Positions 3,642 through 58,756 of a stretch of 64,000 bases of DNA are shown here, one piece after another; positions within the stretch are counted from its first letter, which is position 1; the number at the start of each line of letters is the position of its first letter. The stretch is from positions 192,001 through 256,000 of the forward strand of contig JBHLNF010000003.1 in NCBI GenBank assembly GCA_048937405.1. The letters run 5' to 3'. The translations under genes and the position numbers were made by a program. Source of the DNA: Promethearchaeota archaeon. GTDB lineage: Archaea; Asgardarchaeota; Lokiarchaeia; Sigyniarchaeales; SOKP01. The notes beneath the pieces are model-generated. The model ran no database searches. It saw only the letters and a program-made list of their open reading frames with translations, and was not told where the DNA came from.

Positions 3642-6600
3642 TTATCTAATAATTTCCTCATGTAGTTTTTCGATAAATCCATCAAAATCTTCTTTAGTGA
3701 ATTTCACATTCAACAGTGGTGTAAGTAAGAAAGGAATTAATTCTTCAGTCTCATATACTGGAACTATTTTCATCAATCCTTTTTTCCTCATCTGAAATGC
3801 TGCTTGCCATTCATCTTCTACTGCTCTAGATTTGACTGAATGTTGAGAGCAAAAAAATACAAAGACTTTTGTCATTTTTAAAGTTCTTTCCATATAAGAC
3901 ACAATGTTTTCTCCACTGTCTTCTTCCCAAAAGAAAACTTTATCGACTTTTGGATATGTTTCTAATCGTTTCGCGATTTCTTTAATATTAAAATGTTTTG
4001 AATCAAGTGTTGAATAACTTAAAAACACATTTAATTCTTGAGTAAAGTAGCTTCTAATATTGTTGATAAATAATGGATAAGAAGACAATTGTTCAGAGGT
4101 TATAATACCTTGATTAATTCCTTTTTTGAAAATACTAAGGTTCATTAAATTAGTTTCAACCATGTCCTTATTTGGGAAAATCGTGGAGAATATTTGGTTC
4201 CAATTTTCATTATTAGTAATTATTGAACTACTATCGGATAAATCTATTGCATCCATAGGTTCTATTTGTGCTTTTAACTTGCTTGGCTTTATAGTTTGCA
4301 TTTTAATATCTAATGTTGATCTTATATATTCCGGAATTCCAACACCCCACCATTCAGATTCATAGTTGCTTTGCAATTTTAATTTAATAAAACTTTTTAG
4401 GTTAGATTCGAAATTTTCAATATCCTTTATAGCTATTTCTAATTGTTTTTTATGAGTAGATCTTTTGTTAATTTTTGGTTTGAGAATTAAATATATACTA
4501 ATGATACTAATAAGAGCTACAACTCCAACAATAATCAATATTATTTCAAATGCCGTTAATCCATCACCTCCATCTCCAGATGATTCCCCACTTATTTCTA
4601 GTATAAAATAGTCATAATTATCTCCCTCACCATTTTCTTTTAATTCTCCATATCTGGAACCGTAAGTTTCATTAATTAAATTATTAGGATCTATAATTAA
4701 TTCGATTACTACATCTCCCCCTGTTGAATCAATACTACTACTTGTGAATATATGGGAAAATGTCTTATTCACTCCTAAATATTCTATTGGGGTATCTGAA
4801 TTATTATATAAAATATCCCCCGTATATTCAACCCTAATTATAATTTCAATATTATTTGCTTCCCAAATACCATTATTAATGATTGTAAAATTTAATACAA
4901 ATGACTTACCTATTTCTGCAGTGCTCGCATGAAAATTTACAACTGCTAAATTGGGCATTGGATACCAGAAGCGAATCAATGGTTCAGTCCCTAATTTTAC
5001 TTCAATTCCATCAAGAAAAGTGTCTCCATCACTATCGTTGTTTTTAGGATCTGTTTGATGTTTAAATTCATCTATATTTAAAAGTTGATCATTGTCCGAA
5101 TCTGTTAAATTATCATTACCATTGAGTGGTTCCAAACCATTGAGAACTTCCCATAGATCTTCCATATTATCAAAATCGGTGTCTTTATTCCATGGATTGG
5201 TTAAATTAAGCGCTTCCCAATAATCATTTAACCCATCACCATCAGAATCTGGATTGGTAACATTAGTTCGATATGTATCACTACCTGGTATATATTCTTC
5301 ATAATTATATAACCTGTCTCCGTCAGTATCCTCATAGGTTGGATAAATTAGAGGATTTGAATCAAAAACCCGAGTAGTTCCATCAATTAAAAATGGAATA
5401 TCTCCAATTCCATCCTCTGGATTTAGATCTTCCCCCTTATACTCATCCCAATAATTACCTGCATAACCATCATCCCAAGTATTATTAACGCCACTGTCTT
5501 CAGCATCCACCTCATTATTGATAAAATTATTATAACAAATTTTATTATCTTCTAGATATAAAGATTCTTCTATAAGAATACCAAATTCTTTATTATCGGT
5601 AATCCTATTATTTTGAATAGTATTATTCTTATTAGCATTTTTTTCTTCAAAATATATTCCAAATCTCTCATTGCCTTTTATTGTATTATTACTAATTATA
5701 TTATTGTCGGAATAATTTAAAATATAAAGTCCATATCCTCCACCTAATTCAAGAAACGATAAAGGTTTATTTGTAATTTTATTAAAATTAAATGAATTGT
5801 TAAAGAAGATATTATTAGAACTATCTTGCAAATATAATCCAGCATCATTGTTGTTAAGCTCGTTAAATGAAAAATGACTATTATTAGTTGATACTAAAAC
5901 CAAACCTAATTGATTATTATTTATAATACAGTTTGAAAAATTACACTCTTTAGATAAAAACGATACTATTCCAAAAAAATAATTATCTGTTAAATTAATC
6001 CTTTCAAAGAGAGTATTACTACAATTAAAAAGAAATAATCCTAATGATACATTAAAGAGATCTAAGTCTGATATATAGGAATTTTCTGAATTAACTAAAT
6101 AAACTTGACTTGCGTTTGTAAAATCAGAAGGACCTAAATTCGATTCATTATAATAATAATAAAATCTTTTATCATTTACCGTATTTGTATCATCTATATC
6201 AAACGTATCTTCCTGGATGGCATTAGATACTAAGGTAATTCCACCCCCTTTAAATTCATTACCACTAAGCTTTGTATGATCAACAACACCTTCCTCAGGA
6301 AAAACTAAAATAGAACTTCCTATATTATTGATACCTGAATTATTTGTTATAATAGTAGTGTCAACATTATTTGATAATAATAAACCAATAAGATTATTCT
6401 TAAAGAAACATTGTGAAATAGTACTATTATCGCTTTCACAAACGATTATACCACTTCTACAATTACTAAAATTATTTTTTAAAATAGAGTTATTATGACA
6501 ATAAAAATTTAGGAGTAATCCTTCCTCACTATTAAAAGAAGCACTATTGTTAGTAATTATATTATTAGAACAATTATATAATGTAATTCCGACTGTAGCA

Positions 6601-8558
6601 TGAGTAATATTTGTATTTGATATAATTGAATTATTACAATTTATTAAAATTATTTGTCCGGCATTTTTTATTAGATTAGTATCTTTTACTTGTTCATTCC
6701 AGCGGTAGATCAGTGGTTTTGCATTTACTTCATTATCAGTAATATTATATGAAATATTATTAAAAGAAAGAGAGGGTAAATAATCCTCTTCCTTAAAATT
6801 TATGTATAATCCACAATAAGTTAGTTGATTTTCCAAAATTGTAACATTAAAAACATTAAATAAATAAATACCACTTTTTCCATTATACTTCCCCTTATTC
6901 TTGGTAAGGTTATTATAATTACTCCATTCCAGAAAAATTCCATTACCATAGTCAGCCGAAGATTCCAAATCTTGATGAGCAGTATTATTATTCATTGTAT
7001 TATTTAAGATTAAATTATATTCACTACCACCACTCAAACGTATACCATTAGAATTGAATGTGGCAATATTTTCAGAAATATTATTATTATTGCTCTCAAC
7101 AAGATGTAATCCCTCTAAAGTATTATTAATTAATGTATTTTCTAAAATAGTATTATTCTCACAATTTTCCAATAAAATACCTGTCATAGCATGGTCATAC
7201 GAGCGTAAATCTTTATTGTTACATTTCACTCTATTTTTTGTAATATTATTGTTGAAACATTCTCTAAGATGAATTCCAACTTCATTATATGAGACATTAT
7301 TCTCTATAATTTTACTGAAAGTAGTTGATCTTATTTTAATCCCAAAGAAATTACTATTATTAATTTCATTAGAATCGATTGTTATATTATAACAATAAGT
7401 TAAATCAATCCCATATTCTCTATTATTATTTAACGTATTGTTTCTAATTGTGATATTTTCACAAAAATGTAAGCTAACTCCTATCGAAGAAGAAGAAATG
7501 TTAAAATCAGAGATTAATGAATCATTACATCCTGCTAATATAATTTGTCCTGGAGGTTCTGGAGGTCCAGTTTGTGTAAAATCTTGGTTATTAAGATTGC
7601 TTTCGTTAAAATAATAATACACAGATTTCCCATTTACTGTATTACTTGTATCAATATTATAATCAAAATAAAAAAGAGAATTACCATTGAAACTTAGACC
7701 ACAATCTACCATTTGATTAGCTGCTAAGGTATTATTTGTAGATTCAAAAAAATACATTCCTCTCGTATTGTTCACAAGACGATTCTGACTAATATTGTTA
7801 TGATTACAATTTGCTTGAAATGAGATTCCTAAATTCCCATTATAAGAAAGATTATTTTCTTTTATAATATTCATTGTACAGAAATCTTTAGCCCAAATCC
7901 CTGATTGACCATTATTTTCAATAGTATTATTAAATATAATATTATTTTCACATAAAGTTTCTAATTCAAATCCACGGTGAAAATTATGATGAATTTGATT
8001 ATCTGAAAAATTGTTATAAGAACTACTACCATTTATCCTTATTCCAACTTCATTACCGAATATTTTATTTTTTTGAATTATATTGTTTTCACTTTTATTT
8101 AGCCATATACCATATTTTTGATTACTAAAAAATGTACTATTAATTATTTTACCATTAGTAACATTATTAAACATCAATCCAAAATACATTTCGCTGGATC
8201 CAAATAAGGTACAATTATTAATCACAAAATAATCCTCTGAATTTTCTATAAGGATGCAAAAACCTGAAGCTCCGGCATTAATTGTAACATTTTCAATTAA
8301 ATGAGGATCTGCTAAATCTCCGGTTCTATTCTGGATCCAATCAAGATCCGCGTCAGACCAATTATCATTTGCGATATGAATTGGAGGGCAATTTGGCCAA
8401 AAATCTGCTGTTTTTAACTTAGAATCATTATTAGTGGATTCAAAATTCTTTTCTGCTGTAAAATAGTTCCAAAAATCCCCCCTAAGAAATGAATAACTGG
8501 AGAATATAAATACAAGTATTAATAAAACTTCAATTTTTTTTTTTTTTTCTTGAATCAT
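3642..8558 (-). CDS. Single-pass membrane receptor-like protein: NosD/parallel beta-helix ectodomain, Ca-binding DxDxDG repeats, CARDB-like domain, TM, Swt1-type HEPN-like domain, C-terminal TIR
   Basis: N-terminal hydrophobic signal; many GI.L..S.NN.I..N repeats; GNYWDEY..GIGD motif; DTDGD/DSDGDG repeats; PNLAV..IIDPNNLINET; TM FEIILIIVGVVALISIISIYLIL followed by KPKINKR; C-terminal VFLSYS...SRAVEDEW...IVPV. Confidence 0.85.
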   Translation of the reverse strand: MIQEKKKKIEVLLILVFIFSSYSFLRGDFWNYFTAEKNFESTNNDSKLKTADFWPNCPPIHIANDNWSDADLDWIQNRTGDLADPHLIENVTINAGASGFCILIENSEDYFVINNCTLFGSSEMYFGLMFNNVTNGKIINSTFFSNQKYGIWLNKSENNIIQKNKIFGNEVGIRINGSSSYNNFSDNQIHHNFHRGFELETLCENNIIFNNTIENNGQSGIWAKDFCTMNIIKENNLSYNGNLGISFQANCNHNNISQNRLVNNTRGMYFFESTNNTLAANQMVDCGLSFNGNSLFYFDYNIDTSNTVNGKSVYYYFNESNLNNQDFTQTGPPEPPGQIILAGCNDSLISDFNISSSSIGVSLHFCENITIRNNTLNNNREYGIDLTYCYNITIDSNEINNSNFFGIKIRSTTFSKIIENNVSYNEVGIHLRECFNNNITKNRVKCNNKDLRSYDHAMTGILLENCENNTILENTLINNTLEGLHLVESNNNNISENIATFNSNGIRLSGGSEYNLILNNTMNNNTAHQDLESSADYGNGIFLEWSNYNNLTKNKGKYNGKSGIYLFNVFNVTILENQLTYCGLYINFKEEDYLPSLSFNNISYNITDNEVNAKPLIYRWNEQVKDTNLIKNAGQIILINCNNSIISNTNITHATVGITLYNCSNNIITNNSASFNSEEGLLLNFYCHNNSILKNNFSNCRSGIIVCESDNSTISQCFFKNNLIGLLLSNNVDTTIITNNSGINNIGSSILVFPEEGVVDHTKLSGNEFKGGGITLVSNAIQEDTFDIDDTNTVNDKRFYYYYNESNLGPSDFTNASQVYLVNSENSYISDLDLFNVSLGLFLFNCSNTLFERINLTDNYFFGIVSFLSKECNFSNCIINNNQLGLVLVSTNNSHFSFNELNNNDAGLYLQDSSNNIFFNNSFNFNKITNKPLSFLELGGGYGLYILNYSDNNIISNNTIKGNERFGIYFEEKNANKNNTIQNNRITDNKEFGILIEESLYLEDNKICYNNFINNEVDAEDSGVNNTWDDGYAGNYWDEYKGEDLNPEDGIGDIPFLIDGTTRVFDSNPLIYPTYEDTDGDRLYNYEEYIPGSDTYRTNVTNPDSDGDGLNDYWEALNLTNPWNKDTDFDNMEDLWEVLNGLEPLNGNDNLTDSDNDQLLNIDEFKHQTDPKNNDSDGDTFLDGIEVKLGTEPLIRFWYPMPNLAVVNFHASTAEIGKSFVLNFTIINNGIWEANNIEIIIRVEYTGDILYNNSDTPIEYLGVNKTFSHIFTSSSIDSTGGDVVIELIIDPNNLINETYGSRYGELKENGEGDNYDYFILEISGESSGDGGDGLTAFEIILIIVGVVALISIISIYLILKPKINKRSTHKKQLEIAIKDIENFESNLKSFIKLKLQSNYESEWWGVGIPEYIRSTLDIKMQTIKPSKLKAQIEPMDAIDLSDSSSIITNNENWNQIFSTIFPNKDMVETNLMNLSIFKKGINQGIITSEQLSSYPLFINNIRSYFTQELNVFLSYSTLDSKHFNIKEIAKRLETYPKVDKVFFWEEDSGENIVSYMERTLKMTKVFVFFCSQHSVKSRAVEDEWQAAFQMRKKGLMKIVPVYETEELIPFLLTPLLNVKFTKEDFDGFIEKLHEEIIR

Positions 8559-8892
8559 AGTGATCTGGATTTACTAAATATATATAATATGGTAATATTA
8601 ACGATTCACCTTATTATATTTTTTTAATTTTTATAGGGTTTATATTTAAACAAGCTAGAGCTAAATTGAATTTTTTTAAACAAAAAAATATAATAGAAGC
8701 ATAAAAATTAATTTATAGAAGTGAGAAGAATTCTTACATGATGTTAAACTTCCACTATTGGAAGAAGTATTATGAATAGAGAAAAATCTCCAAAAATTTT
8801 TAGTATCAAATGTTAAAATAGGTTTTGAGTAAGAATTAATCAATTAATTTGATTGATAAAACATTCTTTAAACATAATTAGGTTTTTAGATT

Positions 8893-9519
8893 CTAAGTCT
8901 TTGCTACAAAAATATATCTTAATTTATGAACATGAGGTCCAAGGTCACCATGATCTTCTTTTTCTTCAATTATATCTGTTTCAATTACTGAAAATGCTTT
9001 AAAATGATTTAATAAATCTTTTTCTGTGAAATAATGTGTTGGTCGATAAGGTTTACTCTCAAAAGTATTCTTTTCAATCTTGGCACCTCTTCCAAAACTC
9101 TCTTCTGACTCCGAAAAAACTGAAAAAAATGCAAAACCATTATCTTGAAGCTGATTATAACATTTTTCGATGAAGATTTTTCGTTGATTTTCAAGTAATA
9201 AATGCAGTACGTTAAAACAAAATATTGCATCATATTTCTCATTGTTAAATGGCATATCCATTACAGAACCTAAGATCAATTTGGAATATGGATCAAATTT
9301 CTTAGCTATGTTTAATGCTACTTCAGAAATTTCAATACCAGTTACATCATAATTATTTATTGAAAAAAATTTTGTATGTCTTCCGTAACCCGCACCAGGA
9401 ATGAGAATTGTATTGATATTATACTTTTTAAATAATTTAAGGGAATATTTTGCTGTTGTACTTGGCTCAGTTCCCCAAATTTGTCCTTTATCCAAGAATC
9501 TGCTATTCCAATATTCCAT
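8893..9519 (-). CDS. Class I SAM-dependent methyltransferase
   Basis: ILIPGAGYGRH motif I, VTGIEIS, YDAIFCFNVLH. Confidence 0.9.
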   Translation of the reverse strand: MEYWNSRFLDKGQIWGTEPSTTAKYSLKLFKKYNINTILIPGAGYGRHTKFFSINNYDVTGIEISEVALNIAKKFDPYSKLILGSVMDMPFNNEKYDAIFCFNVLHLLLENQRKIFIEKCYNQLQDNGFAFFSVFSESEESFGRGAKIEKNTFESKPYRPTHYFTEKDLLNHFKAFSVIETDIIEEKEDHGDLGPHVHKLRYIFVAKT

Positions 9520-9638
9520 GAGAGTTTAAGAGAAATTCAACTAGAAGATAATATTATTCAGAAAAAAAATATATTAATAAATAATAAAATTTCTATTTTA
9601 TTGATTCAATGTTAGATTATTAGGAATGTAGCCTAAAA

Positions 9639-10763
9639 TTGCAAAATAAAGATAAACAAATAAAAAGAATAGGTTTAATTGTAAATCCCATCGCAGGAAT
9701 GGGAGGAAGCGTAGGACTTAAAGGAACAGATGGAAAAATATTCAGACAAGCTGAAAAAATGGGTGCTATGCCTGTAACTCCCATTAGAGCAAAGGAATTA
9801 TTAGTGAATTTGAAAAACAAGGAAAAAATGATACTATTAGTGGCACCAGGTAAAATGGGAGCTGAAATTGTTAGAAATCTTGGTATAAAATTTAAAATTA
9901 TTGGCGAAATTGGTACTGAAACAACAGCTGCAGATACTAAAAGAATTGCGAAGCGAATGCTAGAAGACAATATTGATCTTTTAATATTTTGTGGCGGAGA
10001 TGGAACAGCACGGGATATTTTCGATTCAATTGGATTAGAAAAGCCTGTTGTTGCTCTACCTGCTGGAGTAAAAATGTTTAGTTCTGTTTTTGCTATAAAT
10101 CCTAGAGCTGCGGCAGAGATAGTTGATAAATTTATCGAAGAAGCGATAGAAACCCAAGAAAAGGAGGTTCTTGATATTGATGAAGATTTAGTTCGTCAAG
10201 ATATCTTACAAGCAAAATTATACGGATATTTGAAAGTACCGAAAATCTTAGGGTTAATACAAGCAGGAAAAGTTAGTTCTGGGATGGGGAAAACAGTTGA
10301 AGAAAATAAACAAGAAATTTCTCAGTTCATAATCGAGAATATGGAAACTGATATTTTATATCTACTGGGACCAGGCACCACGATAAAGACAATAACGGAC
10401 AATCTTCAATTACCTAAAACTCTTCTTGGAATAGATGCTGTATATAATAATAAATCTGTTGGGTTAGATTTAAATGAGAAAAATATTCTGGAATTGTTAA
10501 ATCATTATAAAAAGGTTATAATCATCATTTCCCCTATTGGGGGTCAAGGTTTTATTTTCGGACGTGGAAATAAGCAAATTACACCCAAAATTCTAAAAAT
10601 AATAGGAAAAGAAAATATTAGAATCATATCTACTGTAGAGAAAATCAGACAATTAGATTGTCTAAGAGTTGATACGGGAGATATTGAGACAGATAAGAAG
10701 TTAATAGGTTTTACTAAAGTTATTACAGGTTATAAAGAAGAACTGATAATCAACGTTGAATAA
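9639..10763 (+). CDS. ATP-NAD kinase / AcoX-like family protein
   Basis: IVNPIAGMGGSVGLKGTDG, FCGGDGTARD, PAGVKMFS and SPIGGQGFIFGRGNKQI are typical of this family. Confidence 0.85.
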   Translation: MQNKDKQIKRIGLIVNPIAGMGGSVGLKGTDGKIFRQAEKMGAMPVTPIRAKELLVNLKNKEKMILLVAPGKMGAEIVRNLGIKFKIIGEIGTETTAADTKRIAKRMLEDNIDLLIFCGGDGTARDIFDSIGLEKPVVALPAGVKMFSSVFAINPRAAAEIVDKFIEEAIETQEKEVLDIDEDLVRQDILQAKLYGYLKVPKILGLIQAGKVSSGMGKTVEENKQEISQFIIENMETDILYLLGPGTTIKTITDNLQLPKTLLGIDAVYNNKSVGLDLNEKNILELLNHYKKVIIIISPIGGQGFIFGRGNKQITPKILKIIGKENIRIISTVEKIRQLDCLRVDTGDIETDKKLIGFTKVITGYKEELIINVE

Positions 10764-10829
10764 TTTATAAATAAAAAAATACAATTTGTTTAAGTTTTAA
10801 ATTTTTCAATATTTTATAGTGTCTGAATT

Positions 10830-11801: not shown

Positions 11802-11884
11802 GTATTAAATAAACAAAACTTTATATTAATAAGAATGAAGTAATTGTCCTTGATTTTTATTCACATAGAAAAAAAGTAAATTTT

Positions 11885-12610: not shown

Positions 12611-12621
12611 AGTGAGAATAA

Positions 12622-15953: not shown

Positions 15954-18900
15954 GTGAATCTAATGAAAATAGTAAAAAAAACTAAAAACACAATATTACT
16001 CATCATATTTATTCTTTCTATCGTATGGTGTAGCTATACATTCCCTATAAAAAGCTTTGTAGAGAAAAAAAATAAAAACAATATCCTAAATGAGAAAGAA
16101 CAAATTTCATATGATCAGAATTTTTTAGGAGATTCTGAAATAAAACTCTTAGATTGGAATGAAGACAGAATTGAATTAGAGTACATTGTACCTGAATTAA
16201 TTGTAGAAGAGATTATTGCTCCAACAAAAGATTTATATCATCAATTGAGCATATCTGGCGGTGGACATCTCGAACAGGCTGGTCACCCTAAGATTCCGTT
16301 TAGAACACTAAAAATTCTCCTTCCATATGGAAAAGAATTGGAAGATATAGAAATTGTTGGGGAGGGAAAACAGACCCTAGAAGGGACTTATAGAATAGAG
16401 CCTGGTCAAGCGCAAACGCCCCTTGGATTACAAACTGATTCTGTATTCACCTTGGATACCTCTATATATGATTCGGATAATCCATTCCCAGCAGAACTTT
16501 ATTCAGTAGTAGGAGTATACAAATTAAGAGGATATAAAATTCTTATTCTCAATCTCTATCCCGTGAGTTATATACCAAAAACAAGTAAGATCTCCTATTA
16601 TGAAGAGATGAAAGTGTTGGTAAATCTTAATGAATGTATCGAAGAAAATTCATTATTCAGAGGGAAAAAGAAGGATGAAGAACGTGTTATAGAAATAGTT
16701 GATAATCCTCAATTAATTGAAACCTATTTAGGAAGGACAGGCTCTTTAAATAGATTCGACTCTCTTTTGGCTCTTCCCCCAGGTTCATATAATTACACAA
16801 TAATTACAAATGAAGCTTTGAAAAACTCAGGTGGAACCTATACATTCCAAGATCTTGTTAATAGTAAAAATGCAAAGGGTATCCAAACGAATATTGTTAC
16901 AGTGGAATATATTTATAATAATTATCCTGGAGATGATAATCAGGAAAAAATACGAAATTTCATTATCGATGCATATTCTACATGGGGTATAGAATACGTC
17001 TTACTTGGGGGCGATGGTGACGGAGAAAATGTAGGTGGAGAAAGTGAGGATCCGATAATTCCTTCAAGAGGTTTCTATGTTTCCTGGTATAACGAGTACA
17101 ATATACCTTCAGATTTATACTATGCAGGATTAGACGGGACTTGGGATGATGACGGAGATGGCCTCTGGGGTGAACCTGGAGAAGATGATCTGTACGCAGA
17201 AGTCTACGTTGGAAGGGCTCCAGTTGATTCAGAAGCAGAACTCTCAAATTTTGTGATGAAAACACTCCTCCATGAAGCTGCTGGTGATTCATATTTATTT
17301 GAAACTCTGATGGTCGGAGAATTTCTAGGTTGGACAAGGACAGGTGGGGATTATAAAGATGAAATAAGATATGGCTCTGATATGCATGGCTATACCACGG
17401 TTGGAATTCCGGCGGAAATATACAATGTTGAGACATTATATGATCGTGATGTGCCGTGGGATAAATCTCAACTTATAGCATTAATGAATGATGGTGTACA
17501 TATAATAAATCATTTAGGGCATGCGAATGTTGAATATAACATGAGACTTATTAATGATGATGTTGATTCTCTTCTTACTAATGAAAAATATTTCTTTGCA
17601 TATAGCCAAGGATGCTATTCTGGGGCGTTTGACAACAGAAACACTGCTTTAGGATATGGAAAGAATGATTGTATTGTAGAGCATTTTGTTACTACTCAAC
17701 ATGGAGCTTTTGCTTTTATAGGTAACAGCAGGTACGGATGGGGTAATACACTCACTACCGATGGAGCATCACAGCATTATGACCGAGAGTTCTATGATGC
17801 TATTTATAGGGAGGATATAATTGAAATTGGAAGGGCAAATCAGGATTCTAAGGAGGATAACATAGCATTTCTTAATCCAGGCAACCCAATGAGATATTGT
17901 TATTATGAATTAAATTTATTTGGCGATCCGATGGCTACAATCACTATAACTCTCCCTCATGATTTACGTGTTTCTTTGGAAGTACCAGAAAATCCTGAAA
18001 TTGAAAGCACTTATGTCATTAATGCAACAGTCACCAACAAAGGTGAGAATGATGAAAATAGCGTAGATTTTGTCTTATATCTTGATGACATTGATGTTGC
18101 TTCCACCACAATTCCCACTCTTCAAGTGGATGAGAGTGTAACTCTTAATTTTGATTGGACACCTATTGGATATGATACTTATAACTTTACTGCTTATGCT
18201 ATGCCAGTTACCAATGAAACTTGCGTGAAAAACAATATTAAAACTCAATTAGTAAGTAATATAATTAATTATAAGACCTTATGGTTTGATGATTTTGAGA
18301 GTGGTTTATCAAAGTGGGAGTCAATTACAGGATTGTGGCATTTAACCAATGATTCTGTCTCATGGCCACCTCCATGGGACCCATATAATTCTCCTATACA
18401 TTCAATGTGGTTTGGAAATGCATCAACTGGAGATATCAGAAATTCTTCTTCATTATCTTTGCTAGCGTATAGTACAGGTCATTTTATCTCCATACCTATA
18501 GATTTATCAAGTGAGGAAAATGCATATTTAGAATTCTATCATTGGAGAAACCATCTCCAACCTCTACGTATACAGCATTTATCATATGTTTATATATCAA
18601 CTGATAACATTAATTGGAATCCCATATACGTCAATAATGATTGGATTCCAACATGGGAAAAGGTGAATCTTGATATCTCAAGTTATTGTGGAAGTAGCTC
18701 GGTACGAATAAAATTTGATTTTTTCGCTCGGTCACGTTTGGAAGGTATGAGAGGATGGTTTGTGGATGACATCAAAATAACTATACCATTACCGAATTAT
18801 AACAAACCAAGCTTATCAAGTGGTTCTGTTTCACCTTCTACTGGTAATCAAACAAAGCAATTCAATTTCAGTGTGAATTATGTAGATCAAGATAATCATG

Positions 18901-20270
18901 CTCCTCTCTATATCAACACAGTGATTAATGGAATTTCTTACCAAATGGAAAAACAAGATCTTTCTGACAATGATTATACCGATGGATGTATATATCAATC
19001 TTTAACCTATTTACAACCAGGTGATTATAATTATTTTTTTGAATGTTACGACGGATTTTCCTGTTTTACTGATGTACAATGGTTAAGCGTAGCTGAAAAA
19101 AATAATGAGAACTCCCCTATTTTGACCAATGGTCAAATTGATCCCATTAGTGGCTTTACAGCAACGCCATTCACATTTTCAGTTACCTATTCTGATAGTG
19201 ATAATAATGCACCAGAATATATGATGGTAACGATAAATACAATGAGCTATTCAATGATAAAGCAAGATCCAATGGATAATAACTACATGGATGGTTGTAT
19301 ATACATATATACCTGTAAATTAGAAGAGGGCATTTGTACATATTCTTTCACCTGTACTGATGGTGTTAATATTGTTGATCTTGGACCATATTTAGGACCA
19401 GTTGTAGAACGAGGCCAATTGTTTGATGGCATGTTTATAAAATATGATTCTGATATAGTGGGAAAGAAACCTGGTTATTCGAAGTTCTCATATTCTTATT
19501 ATTCAGCTCAAACTTTTAATGTATCGTGGGAGAGGATGCGTGGTGTTGGTTCATGGAATGTTAATACAACAACAAGGATTATGTCAAATCCTCGGGCACC
19601 TACTTTTGGTAATGGTTATCATACACCTGTTTGGATCTTCACGGATGTTTCACTTGGAGATAATATATCAATTGCTGTGACTTTTGATGGTGACCATGAT
19701 TTCACTATTTCAGGGGAATTGATTTATTATATTCCCGGTTTTGGAGCTGTAGAAGTATGGGTATTAGAAGATTTGACTACCCCTGGTGGTATTGCATGGT
19801 ATGAAAAAAGTACTGGAATTCTTCTAAATGGCACCTTTTTGAAATCAGATGGTAGTATTTATACATTTGAATTTGTAGATACAAATGTTATATTTACATA
19901 TCTGGAATTTCCACCATTGAATCCATCAATAACAATAAATAATGGAGATGTAATTACTAATAATACCCTCGTGACTCTCACACTTTCAGCTGAAGGAGCA
20001 ACAGAAATGTGTTTCAGAAATGGAAAAACTGGTGATTGGACAGAGTGGGAGCCTTACAGTACAACAAAGCAGTTTTATTTAGAAGGACATGAACATTACA
20101 CCGTTTATTCAATCTATGTGAAGTTTCGAAATGGAACAGGAGAGACGATCGCAATTGGTGATAATATTTTATATTTAGAGGACATGTCTGTGCTTCCTGA
20201 AAATCCTATTGAATTATATATGTTCCTTTTTATATGGCGTATTATACTATTATATCTATTGAACAATTAG
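15954..20270 (+). CDS. Secreted/surface gingipain-like cysteine peptidase (propeptide C25 + peptidase C25, CARDB and further beta domains)
   Basis: Signal peptide; GHPKIPF propeptide; YVLLGGD, PSDLYY, VYVGRAP; catalytic dyad region INHLGHA and YSQGCYSG; LNLFGDP; hydrophobic C-terminus. Start may be the ATG at 15963. Confidence 0.9.
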   Translation: MNLMKIVKKTKNTILLIIFILSIVWCSYTFPIKSFVEKKNKNNILNEKEQISYDQNFLGDSEIKLLDWNEDRIELEYIVPELIVEEIIAPTKDLYHQLSISGGGHLEQAGHPKIPFRTLKILLPYGKELEDIEIVGEGKQTLEGTYRIEPGQAQTPLGLQTDSVFTLDTSIYDSDNPFPAELYSVVGVYKLRGYKILILNLYPVSYIPKTSKISYYEEMKVLVNLNECIEENSLFRGKKKDEERVIEIVDNPQLIETYLGRTGSLNRFDSLLALPPGSYNYTIITNEALKNSGGTYTFQDLVNSKNAKGIQTNIVTVEYIYNNYPGDDNQEKIRNFIIDAYSTWGIEYVLLGGDGDGENVGGESEDPIIPSRGFYVSWYNEYNIPSDLYYAGLDGTWDDDGDGLWGEPGEDDLYAEVYVGRAPVDSEAELSNFVMKTLLHEAAGDSYLFETLMVGEFLGWTRTGGDYKDEIRYGSDMHGYTTVGIPAEIYNVETLYDRDVPWDKSQLIALMNDGVHIINHLGHANVEYNMRLINDDVDSLLTNEKYFFAYSQGCYSGAFDNRNTALGYGKNDCIVEHFVTTQHGAFAFIGNSRYGWGNTLTTDGASQHYDREFYDAIYREDIIEIGRANQDSKEDNIAFLNPGNPMRYCYYELNLFGDPMATITITLPHDLRVSLEVPENPEIESTYVINATVTNKGENDENSVDFVLYLDDIDVASTTIPTLQVDESVTLNFDWTPIGYDTYNFTAYAMPVTNETCVKNNIKTQLVSNIINYKTLWFDDFESGLSKWESITGLWHLTNDSVSWPPPWDPYNSPIHSMWFGNASTGDIRNSSSLSLLAYSTGHFISIPIDLSSEENAYLEFYHWRNHLQPLRIQHLSYVYISTDNINWNPIYVNNDWIPTWEKVNLDISSYCGSSSVRIKFDFFARSRLEGMRGWFVDDIKITIPLPNYNKPSLSSGSVSPSTGNQTKQFNFSVNYVDQDNHAPLYINTVINGISYQMEKQDLSDNDYTDGCIYQSLTYLQPGDYNYFFECYDGFSCFTDVQWLSVAEKNNENSPILTNGQIDPISGFTATPFTFSVTYSDSDNNAPEYMMVTINTMSYSMIKQDPMDNNYMDGCIYIYTCKLEEGICTYSFTCTDGVNIVDLGPYLGPVVERGQLFDGMFIKYDSDIVGKKPGYSKFSYSYYSAQTFNVSWERMRGVGSWNVNTTTRIMSNPRAPTFGNGYHTPVWIFTDVSLGDNISIAVTFDGDHDFTISGELIYYIPGFGAVEVWVLEDLTTPGGIAWYEKSTGILLNGTFLKSDGSIYTFEFVDTNVIFTYLEFPPLNPSITINNGDVITNNTLVTLTLSAEGATEMCFRNGKTGDWTEWEPYSTTKQFYLEGHEHYTVYSIYVKFRNGTGETIAIGDNILYLEDMSVLPENPIELYMFLFIWRIILLYLLNN

Positions 20271-51505: not shown

Positions 51506-51587
51506 ATAAAAATAAAGAGAAATAAAAAATCAGAATTAATTCATAAAGGATGAGCGAAAAATAATAAAAGAAATCTTTATCCTTTTA

Positions 51588-52007: not shown

Positions 52008-52185
52008 ATCTTTAGCACAATTAAATAAAAGCTTAAGACAAAATTAATTATACCTATTTTTTGATTTCAAATTACTAAATATTAGATCCTTAACCAAAAA
52101 ATCAATTTCATTAGAGGATTAAATTTTAATAAAAAAAAGAATGTAAGAAAATTAGTTAAGTAGGAAAAAAAAAATTATAAAAATC

Positions 52186-52851: not shown

Positions 52852-53156
52852 ATAAGAAGATCTTTGGAAATCTTTTCCAAAAACTAATAACTTTTTACAT
52901 TTAAGAGAAGAAATTAGGATCTATATATTTAACCTTTTTATATCAGTTATTAACTTGCAATGAATTGAAAAATGATAGATTGTATTTTTTTAAGATGAAT
53001 AGTTGTTAGATGCCTTATCGCATCTCAATTTTTTACCAAAGAATTTTCTTTATTTTAATTATCCTCATTTTTTGACAAAAATATAAGTAATTGATTATCA
53101 TAACTATCTTTGTCAGCTTAATGACAATATAATTCATTTATAAGGTAATTTTTTTA

Positions 53157-55340
53157 TTGTTTGAGGTAATTCTAATGAGTTATGTAATATTAGATGAAGA
53201 AAAATATGATATAAAAGGAGGAAAACTAGATCTAAATTCTAAAAACATTGAAAATATAACTGAAATTAGAGGTTTAAAGACTTTTTCTGATTTACAGGTA
53301 TTATATCTTAATAAAAACAAAATAAAAGAGATTAATGGCTTAAAGCATTTAAATAAGTTGAAAGTGTTGGCCCTAAGTGATAATTTGATTACTGAAATAA
53401 AAGGTTTAGAATCAAATATTGATCTAGAATGGTTGAATTTAAGAAGTAATCAAATTACTGAGCTTAGAAACCTAGCTTCATTAAGTAACTTAAAAATTTT
53501 AAACTTACGTGATAATAGAATTACAGAGATTAAAGGATTAGAATCTTTAACTAATCTACAAGAATTAATTTTAACAGATAATCAAATTGCTGAAATTAGA
53601 GAACTACGCTATTTGTCAGATTTACAAGAGATAGATTTAAAAAACAATTTAATTACTGAAATTAAAGGGTTGGAAAATCTTACTAAATTACAGCAGATTG
53701 ATATGACGAATAATCAAATTTTTGAAATAAAAGGATTGGAAAATCTTACAAACTTGCAAGAATTAGTTCTTGCAGATAATAAAATTTCAGAAATTAAAGG
53801 GTTAGAAAATCTTACACGATTACGAGTGCTAAACCTCAGCAATAATCAAATTACAGATGTTAGAGGGTTAGAATCTTTAACTAATTTAAAATTTTTGAAT
53901 CTTAAAGGTAATCCAATTTCATATAGATTGCTTAGAGAATTAGATGGTTTTGATCAAAAAGGAAATGCTAAAAAACCTCAAAAATTTGTAGAATATTGCC
54001 AATATAGATTGGAAGAGGAGAGGAAAAAAGTAGAAAGGATTTGGAACAATACCATTCAATACATTAAAAAGTCGAGTTCAATATATAGTGAAATAACATT
54101 AGATAAAATTAGTTCAAAAACAGGAATTCAATCAAAAAATTTAGAAAGTCTTATTGAGAATATGATTTATAATAAAGAGATAGATGCCCAAATCAGAGGA
54201 AATTTGCTAATTTTTAAAAAACAAGTAATAAAACCAAAACTAGAGCCTAAATTAGAAGAAATGCCGAAGTTATCTCAATTTTTAGATGAATCTATAAAAA
54301 AAAATGTTAAAGTTTTAAGGGGAGGAGATTGGAAAATTGAAGCAAACCAGAGTGTTTTTAATTATAAAGTAAAAATAAAAAACTTATCTAAGTATATTAT
54401 TTCAGACATTCAAGTAATCTTTGGAGATATACCTCCAGGATTAGAATTAAGAATGGATAAATTAATCGAATTTTCAAAATTAAATCCTAATAGTGAGGTT
54501 GCCCCAACATATAAATTATATGCTACTGACAATTGTGTGGGAAGTGAAATAAAAGGTATCGTAAATTACAATGATCATTTTGGCCAAATGCACACAGTTC
54601 AAATAGAGCCATTTGAAATTTGCTATGTATGTAATTTACTTGTACCAAGGAGAGTATCTAGAGAGGAGTTTGAGAATACAATACAAAACATGGAAGGAAG
54701 GATTATGCATATAGATAGTAATATGGATCCATATAAAATTGAGGCTCTTATTAAAAGAAAAATGGAAGAATGTAATTTTGCTTTGCTTAAAGAAATCACA
54801 GAAGCCCAACAAAATGGTTTTAGGAAAATCGAAGGATTAGCTCAAGGATTATATGATAAGCAAGATGTAGCTATATCAATTGCGATGAAAAAACTCGAGG
54901 AAGGTTCAGACATAGAAATAAAGACTTTAAGTGATAAGGTGGAAAAAACAACTGATCTTTTAAAAGATATTAGTATTAAAATTGAAGACATAAAAAGTGA
55001 TACTCAAAAAGTTCAAGATATTATTTATTATTTGGATGAATCTAAAATCAGAGAAACTTTAAGTATTGTAATTGAAAATCCTAAAGATTTAAATAGAGTT
55101 ATCTATAAAGTTATTAAAAATCCAAATTGGAGTGATGAAGAAAAAGATAAATGGGCTAAAATTGTTATGGAAACTCTCAATTATTACAAAATGTTTAAAA
55201 CTCCGTTGTGGTTAAAATTCCTCAAAGGAATTACTAAAATCACATTAGGCGAACCAGCATCAAGAGCCATTACGGCTGGAGTGGAAGAATTAGTAGATTG
55301 GTTAAATTTAAAAATTGCTAAACGGCATATTAATAAATAA
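53157..55340 (+). CDS. Cytoplasmic SDS22-like leucine-rich repeat protein with a PCI-like winged helix and a C-terminal beta-sandwich/platform-like region
   Basis: About 10 22-residue LRRs (L..L.L..N.ITEIKGLE.L), then IYSEITLDKISSKTGI...LIENMIYNKEIDAQI. No signal peptide or TM. Start is probably the ATG at 53175. Confidence 0.85.
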   Translation: MFEVILMSYVILDEEKYDIKGGKLDLNSKNIENITEIRGLKTFSDLQVLYLNKNKIKEINGLKHLNKLKVLALSDNLITEIKGLESNIDLEWLNLRSNQITELRNLASLSNLKILNLRDNRITEIKGLESLTNLQELILTDNQIAEIRELRYLSDLQEIDLKNNLITEIKGLENLTKLQQIDMTNNQIFEIKGLENLTNLQELVLADNKISEIKGLENLTRLRVLNLSNNQITDVRGLESLTNLKFLNLKGNPISYRLLRELDGFDQKGNAKKPQKFVEYCQYRLEEERKKVERIWNNTIQYIKKSSSIYSEITLDKISSKTGIQSKNLESLIENMIYNKEIDAQIRGNLLIFKKQVIKPKLEPKLEEMPKLSQFLDESIKKNVKVLRGGDWKIEANQSVFNYKVKIKNLSKYIISDIQVIFGDIPPGLELRMDKLIEFSKLNPNSEVAPTYKLYATDNCVGSEIKGIVNYNDHFGQMHTVQIEPFEICYVCNLLVPRRVSREEFENTIQNMEGRIMHIDSNMDPYKIEALIKRKMEECNFALLKEITEAQQNGFRKIEGLAQGLYDKQDVAISIAMKKLEEGSDIEIKTLSDKVEKTTDLLKDISIKIEDIKSDTQKVQDIIYYLDESKIRETLSIVIENPKDLNRVIYKVIKNPNWSDEEKDKWAKIVMETLNYYKMFKTPLWLKFLKGITKITLGEPASRAITAGVEELVDWLNLKIAKRHINK

Positions 55341-55456
55341 TTTCCTCAACTTTTTTCTTATGCAATATTTAAGAATTAAGGAAAAAAAATAAAAAATTTC
55401 TTAGAGAATTTTTCCAGATGATTATTTAATTCTCTAATTTTAAATCTAAAAAATTA

Positions 55457-58400
55457 TTATCTTAAGATTTCTTCATAGAGATTCTGGATAAATCCTTCGA
55501 AATCATCTTTAGTAAATTTAACATTTAACATTTGCCATAGTAATCGAGGTATATGGTCTTCATCTTCATAAACAGGGATAATTTTCATCAGCCCTTTTTT
55601 AACCATTTGATATGCTGATTGCCATTCACCTTTTACTGCATCAGATTTTATGGAATTTTCTGAGCAAAATAATACGAAAACATTAGTTTTTTTAAGAGTC
55701 TCTTCCATAAATTCTACGATATTTTGCTTGCTATCTACTTCCCAGAATAAGACCTGATCTATTTCAGGATATAATTCTAGTCGTCTAACAATTCTAGAAA
55801 CTTGAAAGTAATCTGTGTCTAATGTTGAATAACTTATGAAAACATTATGTTTTGCCATAATTTCTTCTTTAGGTATAAGTACTGCCGCTTCTAATGCCAG
55901 AGCTTTAGAGCTTGAAAAGTATTCACCTTGGATTTCTTTATTTTTAATCATATCTTGAATTACATTCTCAATTATAGTTTCATCTATTATACCGCTCTTT
56001 TCACTTATATCTACGAGTTGTAAACGAGTAAATTTCGCCCCTAAGGTTAAGATTGTCTGCTTAATTCGATTAATTGTTTCTACTTGTGACTTTTTACAAA
56101 TTAATATTTTTTCTTCAGCTGCATTCACTAAGTCTATTAATTCAAAAGTCTGAGCTTCGTTTTGAATTTCTGTTAAATTTTCTATAGCTTTATCTAATTC
56201 ATTCGCCTTAATTAGAGAATCTACAAAAGACATTCTTTCTTGAAGTTCTTCTTCAGTTTTAGTTTTCTTTTCTTTAACTTTTTGTTCATCTATTTTAATC
56301 TGATAATATGCGATTGTAGTTTTAATTTGAGTTTTATTTGATTTTATTTTTTCTTTATATTCAATGAGATTATAATTTTTAACAATTTCTTTAGCTTCTT
56401 TAATTTGTTTTTGAGCTTGGTTTAAGGTCTCTATGGCATCACTATATTCTTGTTTCTGAGCAAACTTATTAGCCGTATCAATGAGGGATGTAGCTTTATT
56501 ATAATATTTATCAACTTTTGCCTCTTGTTTAATCATTTCTTTAGTTTTTTTTTCAATGGGTGCTTCTGCGGATGGTTTCACTTTAGGAGGCTTCCTTTTC
56601 TTTGAAACAACAAGAAGACTTACTAATATTAATCCTAAAATACCCACACTAACTACAATGATAATTAATACGAGGTAATTTTTACCGTCTCCAGGAGTAC
56701 CTTTACTCAAGGTAAGAGGATCTACGGCTAATTCGAGTTCAAAATATTTATCTGAATATCCGTTAGCAGAAATGGTCATATTTAACAAAATGGGCTCTTC
56801 TCCTGGTTCTACGGTTATCGGCTCAAAAGTTGTAAAATAGGTTCCCCCTCCAAGGTTTTGAACATTACTAGACACATCACTGCCATTCCACCACATCTGA
56901 AATGTTGCATCAGAAATTCCATGATTAGTCTTATTATAGACAGAATAAGTAAGATTGAATTCGTCTAAAGAGAAATTAGAATCTGTCACTTCTATAAATA
57001 GATTCCTTTCTGGAGCCCATTGACATGTATAGAAGTATGGCCAATTCAAAACATTCGGCAGAAATCCAGTTAAGGCAACGTGATGTGCAAAAATCACTTT
57101 TAAACAATATGCCCATACATGTGCAGAATCATTAATTAAAAGTTCTTGAATTCTGTCGTACATTACTTCTCTTGCAGGCCCGTCAGGGGTAATGAGCGCT
57201 TGTTCCATTAATAGCTGTACGTTATCATTGATATTCTCAGGGTCTCTACCAGCATAACCTGCCTCTAAATATCCATCATATTGAGCAATATTAGAAGCTT
57301 CTGATCTATTGGTAAACAATGGATTGATAAAGTCGCTAGCATCATTATAGTCAGGTCCCCAGCCAACAAGTAATAGCTCTAGATGATTTCTTGTATACCC
57401 GTTCCACTCGAACATTTTAGAGGTAAGAGTAATTAAATCACTCCCTGCATCCGTTACTCGAATTCCGATTTTCTTTAGATCTCTGATTAACATTGTATAT
57501 ACATCTTCTCGAAGTTCGGAGCCGATGTTATAAGAATAGTTAAAGGTTCTAAATGGAGAAGTCTCTGTTGCTGCAACCCATTCAGCGTCGTCATCTAGAT
57601 TAAAGCCTTCCCCATATCCCATTGATTGCATTATTATTCTTGCCTTTGTTAAGTTATATATGGGAACAGGGAATGTCCAGTTGGAGTACTTAAAACCCAT
57701 TGGAATAGGAGATTTCATTCTGATGGCATAACCTAATTTGGTAGTATTAATCAGATAATCATAATTAAATGCATAAGAAATTGCTTCTCTCCATGTCCTA
57801 TTTATCAGCATATTGTTCATTACTAAGTATTGAAAAGTTCCACCAGTATCTCCAGTATTTATCACTGCTATGTCAGGATCATCTGTAAACATATCCACAA
57901 ATTCTGCTACCGGGTCTTTTAAAAAGTGGATGTCCCCTGTTAATAATGCCGCATTTCTAGCATCCGGATCTTCAATTTCTGAAAAAACTAAATTATCAAT
58001 GCCCCCCCAATATCCTCTCCAATAATTATCATAAGCATGCAAGGTTACTTCGACATCCTCCTCATATGAATCATACACAAAAGGACCAGTTCCCACAACA
58101 TCCCCATCAAGTTCAACAATACCGCCTGTTTCATTATAGTATGTGTCGGTCAATATGGATGAGGCCGTATAGCATAACAAGTCCTCGAAAGGCGCATAGA
58201 CACCATTTAACTCAAACCTTACAGTATCACTATCTACTTTAACAACATCTTTTATAATTTGAGTACCATTAGGGTATACATATAATGATCTTACCAGGGG
58301 AATGCCGCCTGTATTAAGACCTGTGAAATTATACAACCAAGCTTGTCTATCAAAACTAAATACAACATCATCTGCGTCAAATGTGGAACCATCGTGGAAA

Positions 58401-58756
58401 GTGACACCAGTTCGGAGATTAACAGTATAATTTGTGTGACTTACGTCCCAGGTACCCATTTCTGCGGCGAGTAGGGGCATGATCGGCAGAGTGGGATCGC
58501 TTAAAGTATAAGTAAATAATGTTTCCACAACCTGAAAGAGTACATCCATTGATGACTCATCCCAGCAATTTTGGGGATCAATTGTATTGAGTAAGTTCGG
58601 TACACCATAAACAAAGGGAATGCTCGCAGAATCTGCACTAAATAATAAACTTGAATCAATAGCATTTTTGCGATAATCTCTAAAATTAATGAAACCATTT
58701 GATAAAGAAAGTAATATTGTTATAATTAAAAAAATTGTTTTATACTTTTTTTTCAT
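55457..58756 (-). CDS. Single-pass membrane receptor-like protein: family-5 (peptide/nickel) solute-binding ectodomain, TM, helical/TPR-like region, PCI-like domain, C-terminal TIR
   Basis: Signal MKKKYKTIFLIITILL; LRTGVTFHDGSTFDADDVVFSF, VGTGPF, REAISYAFNY, GWGPDYND; TM YLVLIIIVVSVGILGLILVSLLVV followed by KKRK; FTRLQLVDISEKSG...IQDMIKNKEIQGEY; VFISYS...SDAVKGEW...IIPV. Confidence 0.85.
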   Translation of the reverse strand: MKKKYKTIFLIITILLSLSNGFINFRDYRKNAIDSSLLFSADSASIPFVYGVPNLLNTIDPQNCWDESSMDVLFQVVETLFTYTLSDPTLPIMPLLAAEMGTWDVSHTNYTVNLRTGVTFHDGSTFDADDVVFSFDRQAWLYNFTGLNTGGIPLVRSLYVYPNGTQIIKDVVKVDSDTVRFELNGVYAPFEDLLCYTASSILTDTYYNETGGIVELDGDVVGTGPFVYDSYEEDVEVTLHAYDNYWRGYWGGIDNLVFSEIEDPDARNAALLTGDIHFLKDPVAEFVDMFTDDPDIAVINTGDTGGTFQYLVMNNMLINRTWREAISYAFNYDYLINTTKLGYAIRMKSPIPMGFKYSNWTFPVPIYNLTKARIIMQSMGYGEGFNLDDDAEWVAATETSPFRTFNYSYNIGSELREDVYTMLIRDLKKIGIRVTDAGSDLITLTSKMFEWNGYTRNHLELLLVGWGPDYNDASDFINPLFTNRSEASNIAQYDGYLEAGYAGRDPENINDNVQLLMEQALITPDGPAREVMYDRIQELLINDSAHVWAYCLKVIFAHHVALTGFLPNVLNWPYFYTCQWAPERNLFIEVTDSNFSLDEFNLTYSVYNKTNHGISDATFQMWWNGSDVSSNVQNLGGGTYFTTFEPITVEPGEEPILLNMTISANGYSDKYFELELAVDPLTLSKGTPGDGKNYLVLIIIVVSVGILGLILVSLLVVSKKRKPPKVKPSAEAPIEKKTKEMIKQEAKVDKYYNKATSLIDTANKFAQKQEYSDAIETLNQAQKQIKEAKEIVKNYNLIEYKEKIKSNKTQIKTTIAYYQIKIDEQKVKEKKTKTEEELQERMSFVDSLIKANELDKAIENLTEIQNEAQTFELIDLVNAAEEKILICKKSQVETINRIKQTILTLGAKFTRLQLVDISEKSGIIDETIIENVIQDMIKNKEIQGEYFSSSKALALEAAVLIPKEEIMAKHNVFISYSTLDTDYFQVSRIVRRLELYPEIDQVLFWEVDSKQNIVEFMEETLKKTNVFVLFCSENSIKSDAVKGEWQSAYQMVKKGLMKIIPVYEDEDHIPRLLWQMLNVKFTKDDFEGFIQNLYEEILR

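Follow-up and report, generated by a model that had tools for sequence, protein, structure and literature searches.

Predicted transmembrane TIR receptors with interchangeable ectodomains and a Toll-like layout in a lineage of Lokiarchaeia

TIR (Toll/interleukin-1 receptor) domains end the animal Toll-like receptors (TLRs) and interleukin-1 receptors (IL-1Rs), in which a signal peptide, a large ectodomain of leucine-rich repeats (LRR) or immunoglobulin (Ig) domains and one transmembrane (TM) helix precede the cytoplasmic TIR. In prokaryotes, the TIR proteins of Thoeris are cytoplasmic sensors whose products activate SLOG effectors (preprint 10.64898/2025.12.03.692087), and Cat1, SPARTA TIR-APAZ and AbTir are soluble proteins that respond to cA4, to guide/target nucleic acid or to crowding. 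Single-pass receptors with a solute-binding-protein (SBP) fold outside and a nucleotide-signalling domain inside are represented by the natriuretic-peptide receptor (ANF_receptor) guanylyl cyclases and by bacterial SBP-dependent sensor kinases. To our knowledge, all characterised prokaryotic TIR systems sense intracellular events, and outside-in TIR signalling has so far been an animal speciality. Here, we analyse a stretch of 64,000 nt from a Promethearchaeota archaeon (assembly GCA_048937405.1, contig JBHLNF010000003.1, positions 192,001-256,000; hereafter the window), in which two genes, P0001 and P0002, encode proteins predicted to hold a large ectodomain outside the cell and a TIR domain inside it. 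The source genome comprises 4.47 Mb in 29 contigs, with an estimated contamination of 5.7%.

The two Loki proteins resemble TLRs and IL-1Rs in the order of their parts (with the topology predicted), in the diversity of ectodomains carried upon a conserved TIR, and in the TIR itself, a model of which superposes on the TIRs of MyD88, IL-18Rbeta, IL-1RAcP and Hydra TRR-2 with Z ~14. They differ in having NosD beta-helix or SBP ectodomains instead of LRR or Ig domains, in an extra HEPN-like or PCI-like domain between TM helix and TIR, and in a TIR of the prokaryotic TIR_2 type (E 6e-15, versus E 0.003, below cut-off, for the Pfam TIR model PF01582). With Thoeris they share a conserved Glu at the catalytic position and, for P0001 and not for P0002, linkage to a gene for a SLOG-domain protein, here called SLOG857; some relatives have several TIR genes per SLOG gene, as in type III Thoeris. 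Unlike in Thoeris, the TIR protein is a predicted membrane receptor with a large ectodomain, the candidate effector carries a RelA/SpoT-like domain in place of SIR2, Macro-TM or caspase, the locus is archaeal and chromosomally syntenic and includes a third conserved gene (orf526), and ThsB models are not matched above their cut-off. Cat1, SPARTA TIR-APAZ and AbTir are the best structural matches of the Loki TIR, and the Cat1 Glu is aligned with that of the Loki domain, but these proteins are soluble and have a Trp four residues before the Glu (position Glu-4), where the Loki family has Ala. The likeness to the single-pass receptors with an SBP fold, which extends to family members with Peripla_BP_6/ANF_receptor heads, is one of design and rests on Pfam matches, and the output domain is a TIR instead of a cyclase or kinase. 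TIR signalling, Thoeris-like logic and a Toll-like layout are known; surface sensing by such means in an archaeon is apparently undescribed, since we found no description of Asgard membrane TIR receptors or of a system joining TIR and RelA/SpoT-SLOG proteins in the literature, most subscription journals lying outside the search.

Two predicted receptors with closely similar TIR domains

The C-termini of P0001 and P0002 align without gaps (82/129 identities, 64%, E 7e-50, BLASTP), and the best BLASTP match outside the TIR, which falls on the TM segment, has E 0.077; the ectodomains and linkers of the two proteins are therefore unrelated. P0001 begins with Lys-rich sequence, after which come a hydrophobic signal segment and a beta-helix ectodomain (NosD PF05048, E 1.5e-69 over 7 stretches; Beta_helix PF13229, E 5.8e-64), and P0002 carries an SBP of family 5 (Pfam SBP_bac_5, E 3.8e-63), for which the DppA, SapA and GsiB models of NCBIfam are covered nearly end to end. 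Both open reading frames (ORFs) are uninterrupted. The start of P0002 is assigned to an ATG that gives a normal signal peptide and a product equal to a 1099-aa database protein (P0126), and an alternative TTG at 58828 would lengthen the protein by 24 aa. Some 150 aa separate TM helix and TIR in P0001, and the ~250 aa of the P0002 linker consist of a coiled coil and a winged-helix module. The TIR_2 model (PF13676, cut-off 28 bits) matches at 56.2 bits in P0001 (aa 1511-1632) and at 54.9 bits in P0002.

The topology of both proteins was predicted from signal peptide, single TM helix, positive-inside flank and sequon bias. Each has a single strong hydrophobic segment by hydropathy, which in P0001 covers aa 1339-1357, and 6-7 Lys or Arg residues occur in the 20 aa after the segment and 0-2 before it. 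N-glycosylation sequons (N-x-S/T) number 61 in the P0001 ectodomain (33 expected from composition) and 16 in that of P0002 (7 expected), versus 1-2 in the tails, and Cys residues are distributed as 24 outside and 1 inside in P0001, and 4 and 2 in P0002. Flank charge, sequons and Cys agree in predicting that the ectodomain is outside and the TIR inside, a type-I topology.

Structural comparison identifies the C-terminal domain as a TIR. A model of P0001 residues 1358-1638, built with an alignment of 40 orthologous tails, reached pLDDT 86.6 (single-sequence AlphaFold gave an unusable 41) and contains a helical domain (model residues 1-145) followed by an alpha/beta domain (150-281). Foldseek matched this model to SPARTA TIR-APAZ (E 3e-4), MyD88, SARM1, MAL, Cat1, AbTir and Hydra TRR-2. 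In an all-against-representatives comparison (VIA), Cat1 scored Z 14.9 (rmsd 1.8 over 116 aa), RPS4/RRS1, MyD88, TRR-2, TIR-1/SARM1, IL-18Rbeta and ThsB scored 13-15, and non-TIR folds such as deoxyribosyltransferases and CheY-like proteins fell below the solved TIRs, at 10-12. Cat1 is also the best sequence match in the Protein Data Bank (E 7e-4), with its Glu in SDWCWDEL aligned to the Glu of the Loki AV..EW motif; no solved eukaryotic TIR was reached by sequence search at E<=1. TIR_2 is matched in 40/40 orthologous tails, and the Glu at the catalytic position (E1583 of P0001) is kept in all 40 of them and in 13/13 paralogues of the genome. The fold of the P0002 TIR is assigned through its 64% identity to the modelled domain.

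The linkers belong to two recurrent types. That of P0001 occurs in at least 43 retrieved proteins, always between TM helix and TIR; the HEPN_Swt1 model (PF18731) matches it below threshold in 33/40 orthologous tails (best E 1e-5), and a PADLOC candidate model, PDC-M34B, matches it with E 8.7e-8. Its sequences do not contain the Rx4-6H RNase motif: the candidate position holds Arg in 25/40 tails (Ser in P0001), and no conserved His follows 4-6 residues later. Our reading is that this module is helical, HEPN-like and non-catalytic, and that it may serve in dimerisation. The linker of P0002, helical repeats and a PCI-like winged helix, is present in at least 80 database proteins, including a class with 3-4 N-terminal TM helices, and shares 51% identity, across 134 aa, with its counterpart in a beta-helix paralogue (C28); in soluble paralogues, the same winged helix gives Pfam PCI matches.

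These results agree in most respects with a preliminary description of this DNA, which had read both genes as signal peptide, ectodomain, one TM helix with a basic cytoplasmic flank, adaptor and terminal TIR, set about 47 kb apart. Pfam and hydropathy confirm the architecture, the count of Lys and Arg confirms the flank, and the distance is 46.9 kb. Its hand count of 81/128 gapless identities is close to the BLASTP result, its unrelated ectodomains remain so, and the alphaC Glu that it saw in AVEDEW and AVKGEW proved to be conserved throughout the paralogues and orthologous tails. The C-terminus does fold as a TIR according to the model, on the side of the membrane predicted to be opposite the ectodomain. 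The adaptors, which it had called unrelated, indeed show no mutual similarity by BLASTP; that description has to be amended in that each is a recurrent module.

A modular and patchily distributed family

P0001 and P0002 are two of 13 TIR_2 ORFs in the genome, all with the TIR at the C-terminus. Five encode proteins of the order signal peptide, ectodomain, TM helix and TIR, namely P0001, P0002 and three others with Peripla_BP_6+NosD, propeller+fn3+NosD and a second, eight-module NosD as heads; the other eight are soluble (two LRR-PCI-TIR, two PCI-TIR, one WD40-TIR, one LRR-TIR and two with unknown heads). The five membrane TIRs and that of one soluble LRR-PCI-TIR protein form a tight subclade, 51-77% identical, marked by a KKGLMKIIPVY insert and an EEILR ending. 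Within the genome, the TIR of P0002 is closest to that of the beta-helix paralogue C28 (77%), with which P0002 has the whole tail in common, helical and PCI-like linker included, and the TIR of P0001 is closest to that of a soluble LRR paralogue (65%). Gene conversion was considered as the source of the likeness between the P0001 and P0002 TIRs and rejected, their 64% identity being lower than the 77% between P0002 and C28 and fitting ordinary paralogy. A single 55-kb system spanning both genes was likewise rejected: the intervening DNA encodes C25 peptidases, an SNF2 helicase, oxidoreductases and ferredoxins, that is, housekeeping and redox functions, so that the two genes are dispersed family members and not one locus.

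The same modularity is seen at larger scale. With the P0001 TIR as query, a word-indexed search of databases yielded more than 120 proteins at >=53% identity, whose named sources are all Promethearchaeota/Lokiarchaeota assemblies and whose heads include NosD, SBP_bac_5+NosD, Peripla_BP_6/ANF_receptor+NosD, FG-GAP/PQQ propellers, PKD/Ig, Band_7, SBBP, LRR and PCI. In some short database proteins (P0122-P0125, 359-604 aa) the clade-A TIR is repeated in tandem, in 2-4 copies. HMMER, run exhaustively over 1.84 billion cluster representatives (clusters at 50% identity), gave 158 matches at E<=1e-30, rising to 630 at E<=1e-10 and to 1576 at E<=1e-3, almost always with the TIR at the extreme C-terminus. 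The family thus numbers at least 158 clusters, which come exclusively from Asgard (Promethearchaeota) assemblies and nearly all from a single Loki family. Among GTDB contigs, surveyed at one genome per species, we found 54 TIR loci, all in Asgard metagenome-assembled genomes (MAGs), and ~33 of them encode the order signal peptide, ectodomain, TM helix and TIR.

A tree of 207 TIR domains (FastTree, 134 columns) is weakly resolved and was read against shuffled labels as a control. It calls for at least 18 changes of head type (46 with shuffled labels), at least 18 of linker type (91) and at least 27 between membrane and soluble forms (60). Among orthologues, identity ranges from 26-44% in ectodomains to 68-89% in TIRs; orthologues of P0001 are 34-39% identical in the ectodomain, 43-53% in the linker and 76-79% in the TIR, and those of P0002 follow the same gradient. 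The shuffling counts and the identity gradient together make a modular family, in which interchangeable, fast-evolving ectodomains are set on a conserved TIR, well supported. The preliminary description had proposed such a family and pointed to a TIR tree for signs of domain shuffling; both ideas hold, with five receptor-like members in this genome, more than 100 in the databases and repeated changes of head and linker in the tree. The notion that these genes are artefacts, either chimeric assemblies or gene calls that fused a separate TIR gene to that of a surface protein, which an assembly of many contigs with some contamination might invite and which the preliminary description had itself raised, is effectively excluded because the ORFs are uninterrupted and the same architecture recurs in NCBI, JGI, ENA and Logan assemblies on dozens of contigs independent of one another, among them P0001 orthologues of 1200-2000 aa.

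The family is patchy. In a sample of 201 genomes across the phylum (match threshold E<=1e-20, best 20 candidates scored per genome, so that all counts are lower bounds), 24 genomes had a match, of which 22 belong to one order and 20 to one family. By family, the matched genomes are 20/40 in the window's own, 2/3 in its sister family, 1/10 in one other and none in 24 others; in the window's own genus, 4/10 genomes were matched, at completeness values of 92-100%. This distribution identifies the family as a lineage-specific expansion in one Loki family and not an Asgard-wide trait, and the broader claim of the preliminary description, that such receptors belong to the archaeal relatives of eukaryotes generally, is not borne out. 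A few clade-A TIR loci (G136/L039, L049, L058 and L026) come from MAGs labelled Hod-, Thor-, Hermod- and Odinarchaeota, mostly on short contigs and from one study, which may reflect transfer, mis-binning or labelling. The family is restricted to one Loki lineage and is of the TIR_2 type by sequence, with bacterial defence TIRs as its closest solved relatives, and the TLR-like layout is therefore best read as convergence, which is the economical explanation; these sequences lend no support to descent of animal TLRs from the Loki family and, given that confinement, do not in themselves bear on the origin of eukaryotic TLRs.

Gene neighbourhoods and candidate partners

The next gene downstream of P0001, on its strand, is orf526, and SLOG857 lies two genes downstream, also on that strand (Table 1). 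SLOG857 has the motifs RxKxxxS, DxxGxR and ExQ in its RelA/SpoT-like domain and a GGxxG signature in its SLOG domain, and is the only LSDAT_prok SLOG of the genome. Its homologues occur in 10/54 TIR loci. Viewed from the SLOG side, with 61 genomes of the order searched, each of the six full-length homologues has a clade-A TIR gene within 10 kb and 5/6 have one within 1 kb; this sample overlaps the 54-locus set, and the two linkage counts are not independent. The trio of orf526, TIR and SLOG genes is found in rearranged order in three further loci (L028+L031, L053 and L065) and more loosely in L029/L038; in L028+L031, from a close relative, a second TIR receptor gene stands between orf526 and the SLOG gene. 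SLOG857 is thus a candidate receiver or effector for a TIR signal, as judged from domain content and linkage. On one contig of the same genus (G171:C38:3941-24884), four clade-A-like TIR genes and two SLOG857-like genes are gathered in ~21 kb, a cluster that recalls type III Thoeris. A further class of clade-A TIR protein, of ~830 aa, which starts with 3-4 TM helices and continues through repeated helical modules to PCI-TIR, is encoded in L035, L037, L038, L041, L046 and L060, and in four of these six loci (L035, L037, L038 and L041) its gene lies directly upstream of a SLOG857 homologue; this multi-pass gene is not present in the genome studied here.

The second gene of the trio, orf526, is single copy in the genome and has homologues beside TIR genes in 8/54 loci. 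It matched no family in Pfam, PADLOC or NCBIfam, and Atlas gave coiled-coil-type noise or unnamed archaeal clusters. Look-alike clusters, found by language-model features (0.94-0.95), occur in Bathyarchaeota and Thermoproteota, so that orf526 may not be a TIR-specific partner but an archaeal protein of wide occurrence that this locus recruited. On its other side, P0001 is flanked by genes for a SAM-type methyltransferase and an NAD kinase, and L027 and L040 show the same succession of genes, from NAD kinase through methyltransferase and TIR receptor to orf526. The closeness of an NAD kinase to a putatively NAD-consuming domain may be coincidence. No mobile-element genes were found among the genes flanking P0001 and P0002 or lying between them, and the recurrent synteny of P0001 makes its locus look chromosomal rather than mobile.

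P0002 has a different setting, among genes for LRR-PCI-X, ferredoxin, SDR and GAPDH. LRR-PCI-X combines LRR with the same PCI-like winged helix as the soluble LRR-PCI-TIR paralogues, and in place of the TIR has a non-TIR C-terminal part of ~380 aa, with a mean column identity of 83% (alignment A4) and a weak resemblance to alpha-solenoids (TM ~0.5, Atlas). Its orthologues (65-67% identity) are convergent to SBP5-TM-PCI-TIR genes in L042, L043 and L049, which suggests LRR-PCI-X as a possible partner of P0002; a complex prediction with the P0002 tail and LRR-PCI-X residues 255-727 gave no answer (score 0.00), which counts neither for nor against. Elsewhere in the window are two large gingipain-like proteins (Peptidase_C25 with propeptide, one with a CARDB domain), which are probably surface proteases.

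Table 1. Coordinates of the features of the window discussed in the text; aa numbers refer to the encoded protein.
Feature	Position	Strand	Description	Basis
P0001 gene	3642..8558	-	1638 aa: signal peptide, NosD/beta-helix, TM, HEPN_Swt1-like linker, TIR	
P0001 ectodomain (aa 26-1336)	4551..8483	-	7 NosD/right-handed beta-helix modules and TSP3-like Asp-rich stretch	Pfam
P0001 TM helix (aa 1337-1360)	4479..4550	-	followed by KPKINKRSTHKK	hydropathy, flank charges
P0001 juxtamembrane helical domain (aa ~1375-1505)	4044..4436	-	Swt1-like, HEPN-like	sub-threshold PF18731, PADLOC, model
P0001 TIR (aa 1511-1638)	3645..4028	-	Glu E1583	TIR_2, model, Foldseek/VIA
P0002 gene	55457..58756	-	1099 aa: signal peptide, SBP_bac_5, beta-rich spacer, TM, coiled coil, PCI-like winged helix, TIR	
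P0002 ectodomain (aa 26-693)	56678..58681	-	complete family-5 SBP (DppA/SapA/GsiB-like) and beta-rich spacer	Pfam, NCBIfam
P0002 TM helix	56609..56677	-	followed by SKKRKPPKVK	hydropathy, flank charges
P0002 cytoplasmic linker	55859..56608	-	Lys/Glu-rich coiled coil, then helical and PCI-like winged-helix module	
P0002 TIR (aa 972-1099)	55460..55843	-	Glu kept in AVKGEW	TIR_2, identity to P0001/C28 TIRs
SLOG857, 5' part	1..1087	-	857 aa, extending beyond window start: RelA/SpoT-like nucleotidyltransferase, TPR, TRPM-type SLOG, C-terminal domain	
orf526	1754..3334	-	526-aa coiled-coil protein downstream of P0001, same strand	
SAM-type methyltransferase	8893-9519	-	flanks P0001	
NAD kinase	9639-10763	+	flanks P0001	
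Gingipain-like protein	15954-20270	+	Peptidase_C25 with propeptide	
Gingipain-like protein	24988-27960	+	Peptidase_C25 with propeptide	
LRR-PCI-X	53157..55340	+	727 aa, convergent neighbour of P0002	Pfam

Proposed outside-in signalling and its alternatives

We propose, with a probability of roughly 0.55, that P0001 and P0002 are outside-in sensors in which clustering would lead to NAD+ cleavage by the TIRs and to a response through SLOG857. The proposal draws on the architecture and predicted topology, the TIR fold and its conserved Glu, the size, range and shuffling of the family, and the linkage to SLOG857 and orf526; what we infer from these runs from ligand and oligomerisation through enzymatic activity and messenger to effector output and biological role. 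Binding or clustering of the ectodomains outside the cell, through a carbohydrate-binding-type beta-helix in P0001 and a peptide-type SBP in P0002, would draw the tails together, with the HEPN-like or PCI-like juxtamembrane module acting in their assembly. The TIRs would then build a composite two-subunit active site and cleave NAD+, the product being more probably ADP-ribose (ADPR) or a linear derivative than a cyclic isomer. In the P0001-type locus at least, the SLOG domain of SLOG857 could read this product; the homologous SLOG-type domain of TRPM2 binds ADPR. The nucleotidyltransferase of SLOG857 would thereby be switched on in an alarmone- or toxSAS-like response, and the outcome may be growth arrest or a stress programme. 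Candidate roles for the receptors are antiviral defence, recognition of partners or other cells, and nutrient sensing. A 2026 survey of Asgard viruses reported a sponge for TIR signals, resembling Tad2, where no Thoeris system of the host was recognised; it concerns a different Asgard lineage and is only circumstantial evidence (PMC13700489).

Several observations weigh against this proposal. C-terminally anchored beta-helix proteins are common archaeal surface proteins without a signalling role. All six clade-A TIRs aligned from the genome have an invariant Ala at Glu-4, and an invariant Trp comes after the Glu instead; the aromatic residue at that place in the WxxxE motif, a feature of TIRs that make cyclic ADPR, is not present in clade-A TIRs. 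An aromatic residue, Trp or other, is found at Glu-4 in every TIR shown to make cyclic ADPR, where it stacks against the substrate and cyclisation depends on it, and in AbTir, in which this residue is W204, the W204A substitution lowers NADase activity (preprint 10.1101/2022.05.07.491051). Taken together, the Ala at Glu-4 and the effect of W204A suggest that the Loki TIR could have weak activity or act purely as a scaffold; should it be enzymatic, it would more probably make linear ADPR or a conjugate than 2'/3'cADPR. The ThsB_TIR model reached 18.6 bits, under its cut-off of 21.2, and none of the PADLOC TIR and defence models gave a TIR match at E<=0.01. No SLOG or other known effector gene was found among the genes flanking P0002. 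In several relatives, the gene directly beside SLOG857 is the multi-pass TIR or a second receptor, and the adjacency of P0001 and SLOG857 may therefore be secondary, arising by loss of that other gene.

The first of two alternatives, which we regard as unlikely, takes the Ala at Glu-4 at face value: P0001-type proteins would be structural surface proteins or adhesins and P0002 a tethered SBP5, and the TIR a non-enzymatic module for clustering or anchoring, with no second messenger. NosD/beta-helix proteins and C-terminally anchored SBPs are ordinary components of archaeal envelopes, the TIRs of animal receptors are mainly scaffolds, and PCI and HEPN-like modules are assembly domains, all of which fits. 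However, the Glu at the catalytic position is invariant in the 40 orthologues and 13 paralogues despite the variability of the family, conservation within the protein is highest in the TIR, and linkage to the gene of a SLOG nucleotide sensor is conserved. For a tethered SBP one may add that no ABC permease or ATPase genes were found among those flanking P0002, which speaks against this alternative as well.

Rather improbable, to much the same degree, is a self-contained abortive-infection or suicide switch, in which envelope damage or virion attachment would cluster the receptors and the TIRs would deplete NAD+ with no reader involved, SLOG857 belonging to a separate TIR system. NAD+ depletion is the mode of action of many prokaryotic TIRs (SPARTA, Cat1 and TIR-SAVED), which are the best structural matches, the family shows the patchiness of defence genes even inside the genus, SLOG857 homologues directly follow other TIR genes in relatives, and P0002 has no effector gene nearby. 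Against these points stands the P0001 locus itself, which is syntenic across genomes from NAD kinase to orf526 and not island-like, is free, like that of P0002, of surrounding mobile-element genes, and belongs to a trio with the SLOG gene that is kept through rearrangements.

Outside-in sensing with a SLOG reader may, more tentatively, be one instance of a wider scheme. It is possible, though we would not presume it, that Loki-type Asgards have a transmembrane TIR pathway in which swappable receptors for virions, partner cells, glycans or peptides feed an ADPR-type messenger to a SLOG-RelA/SpoT effector of alarmone type. If outside-in signalling by these proteins is true, it would be the first such TIR pathway known in any prokaryote, a case in which the design of the Toll receptor was invented independently. 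The receptors and their SLOG linkage would extend TIR/NAD+ signalling to sensing at the cell surface, and their natural chimeras would offer a tractable set for the study of TIR activation by clustering. For the organisms themselves, which are obligately partnered and hard to study, a receptor-like layer would be added to their cell biology.

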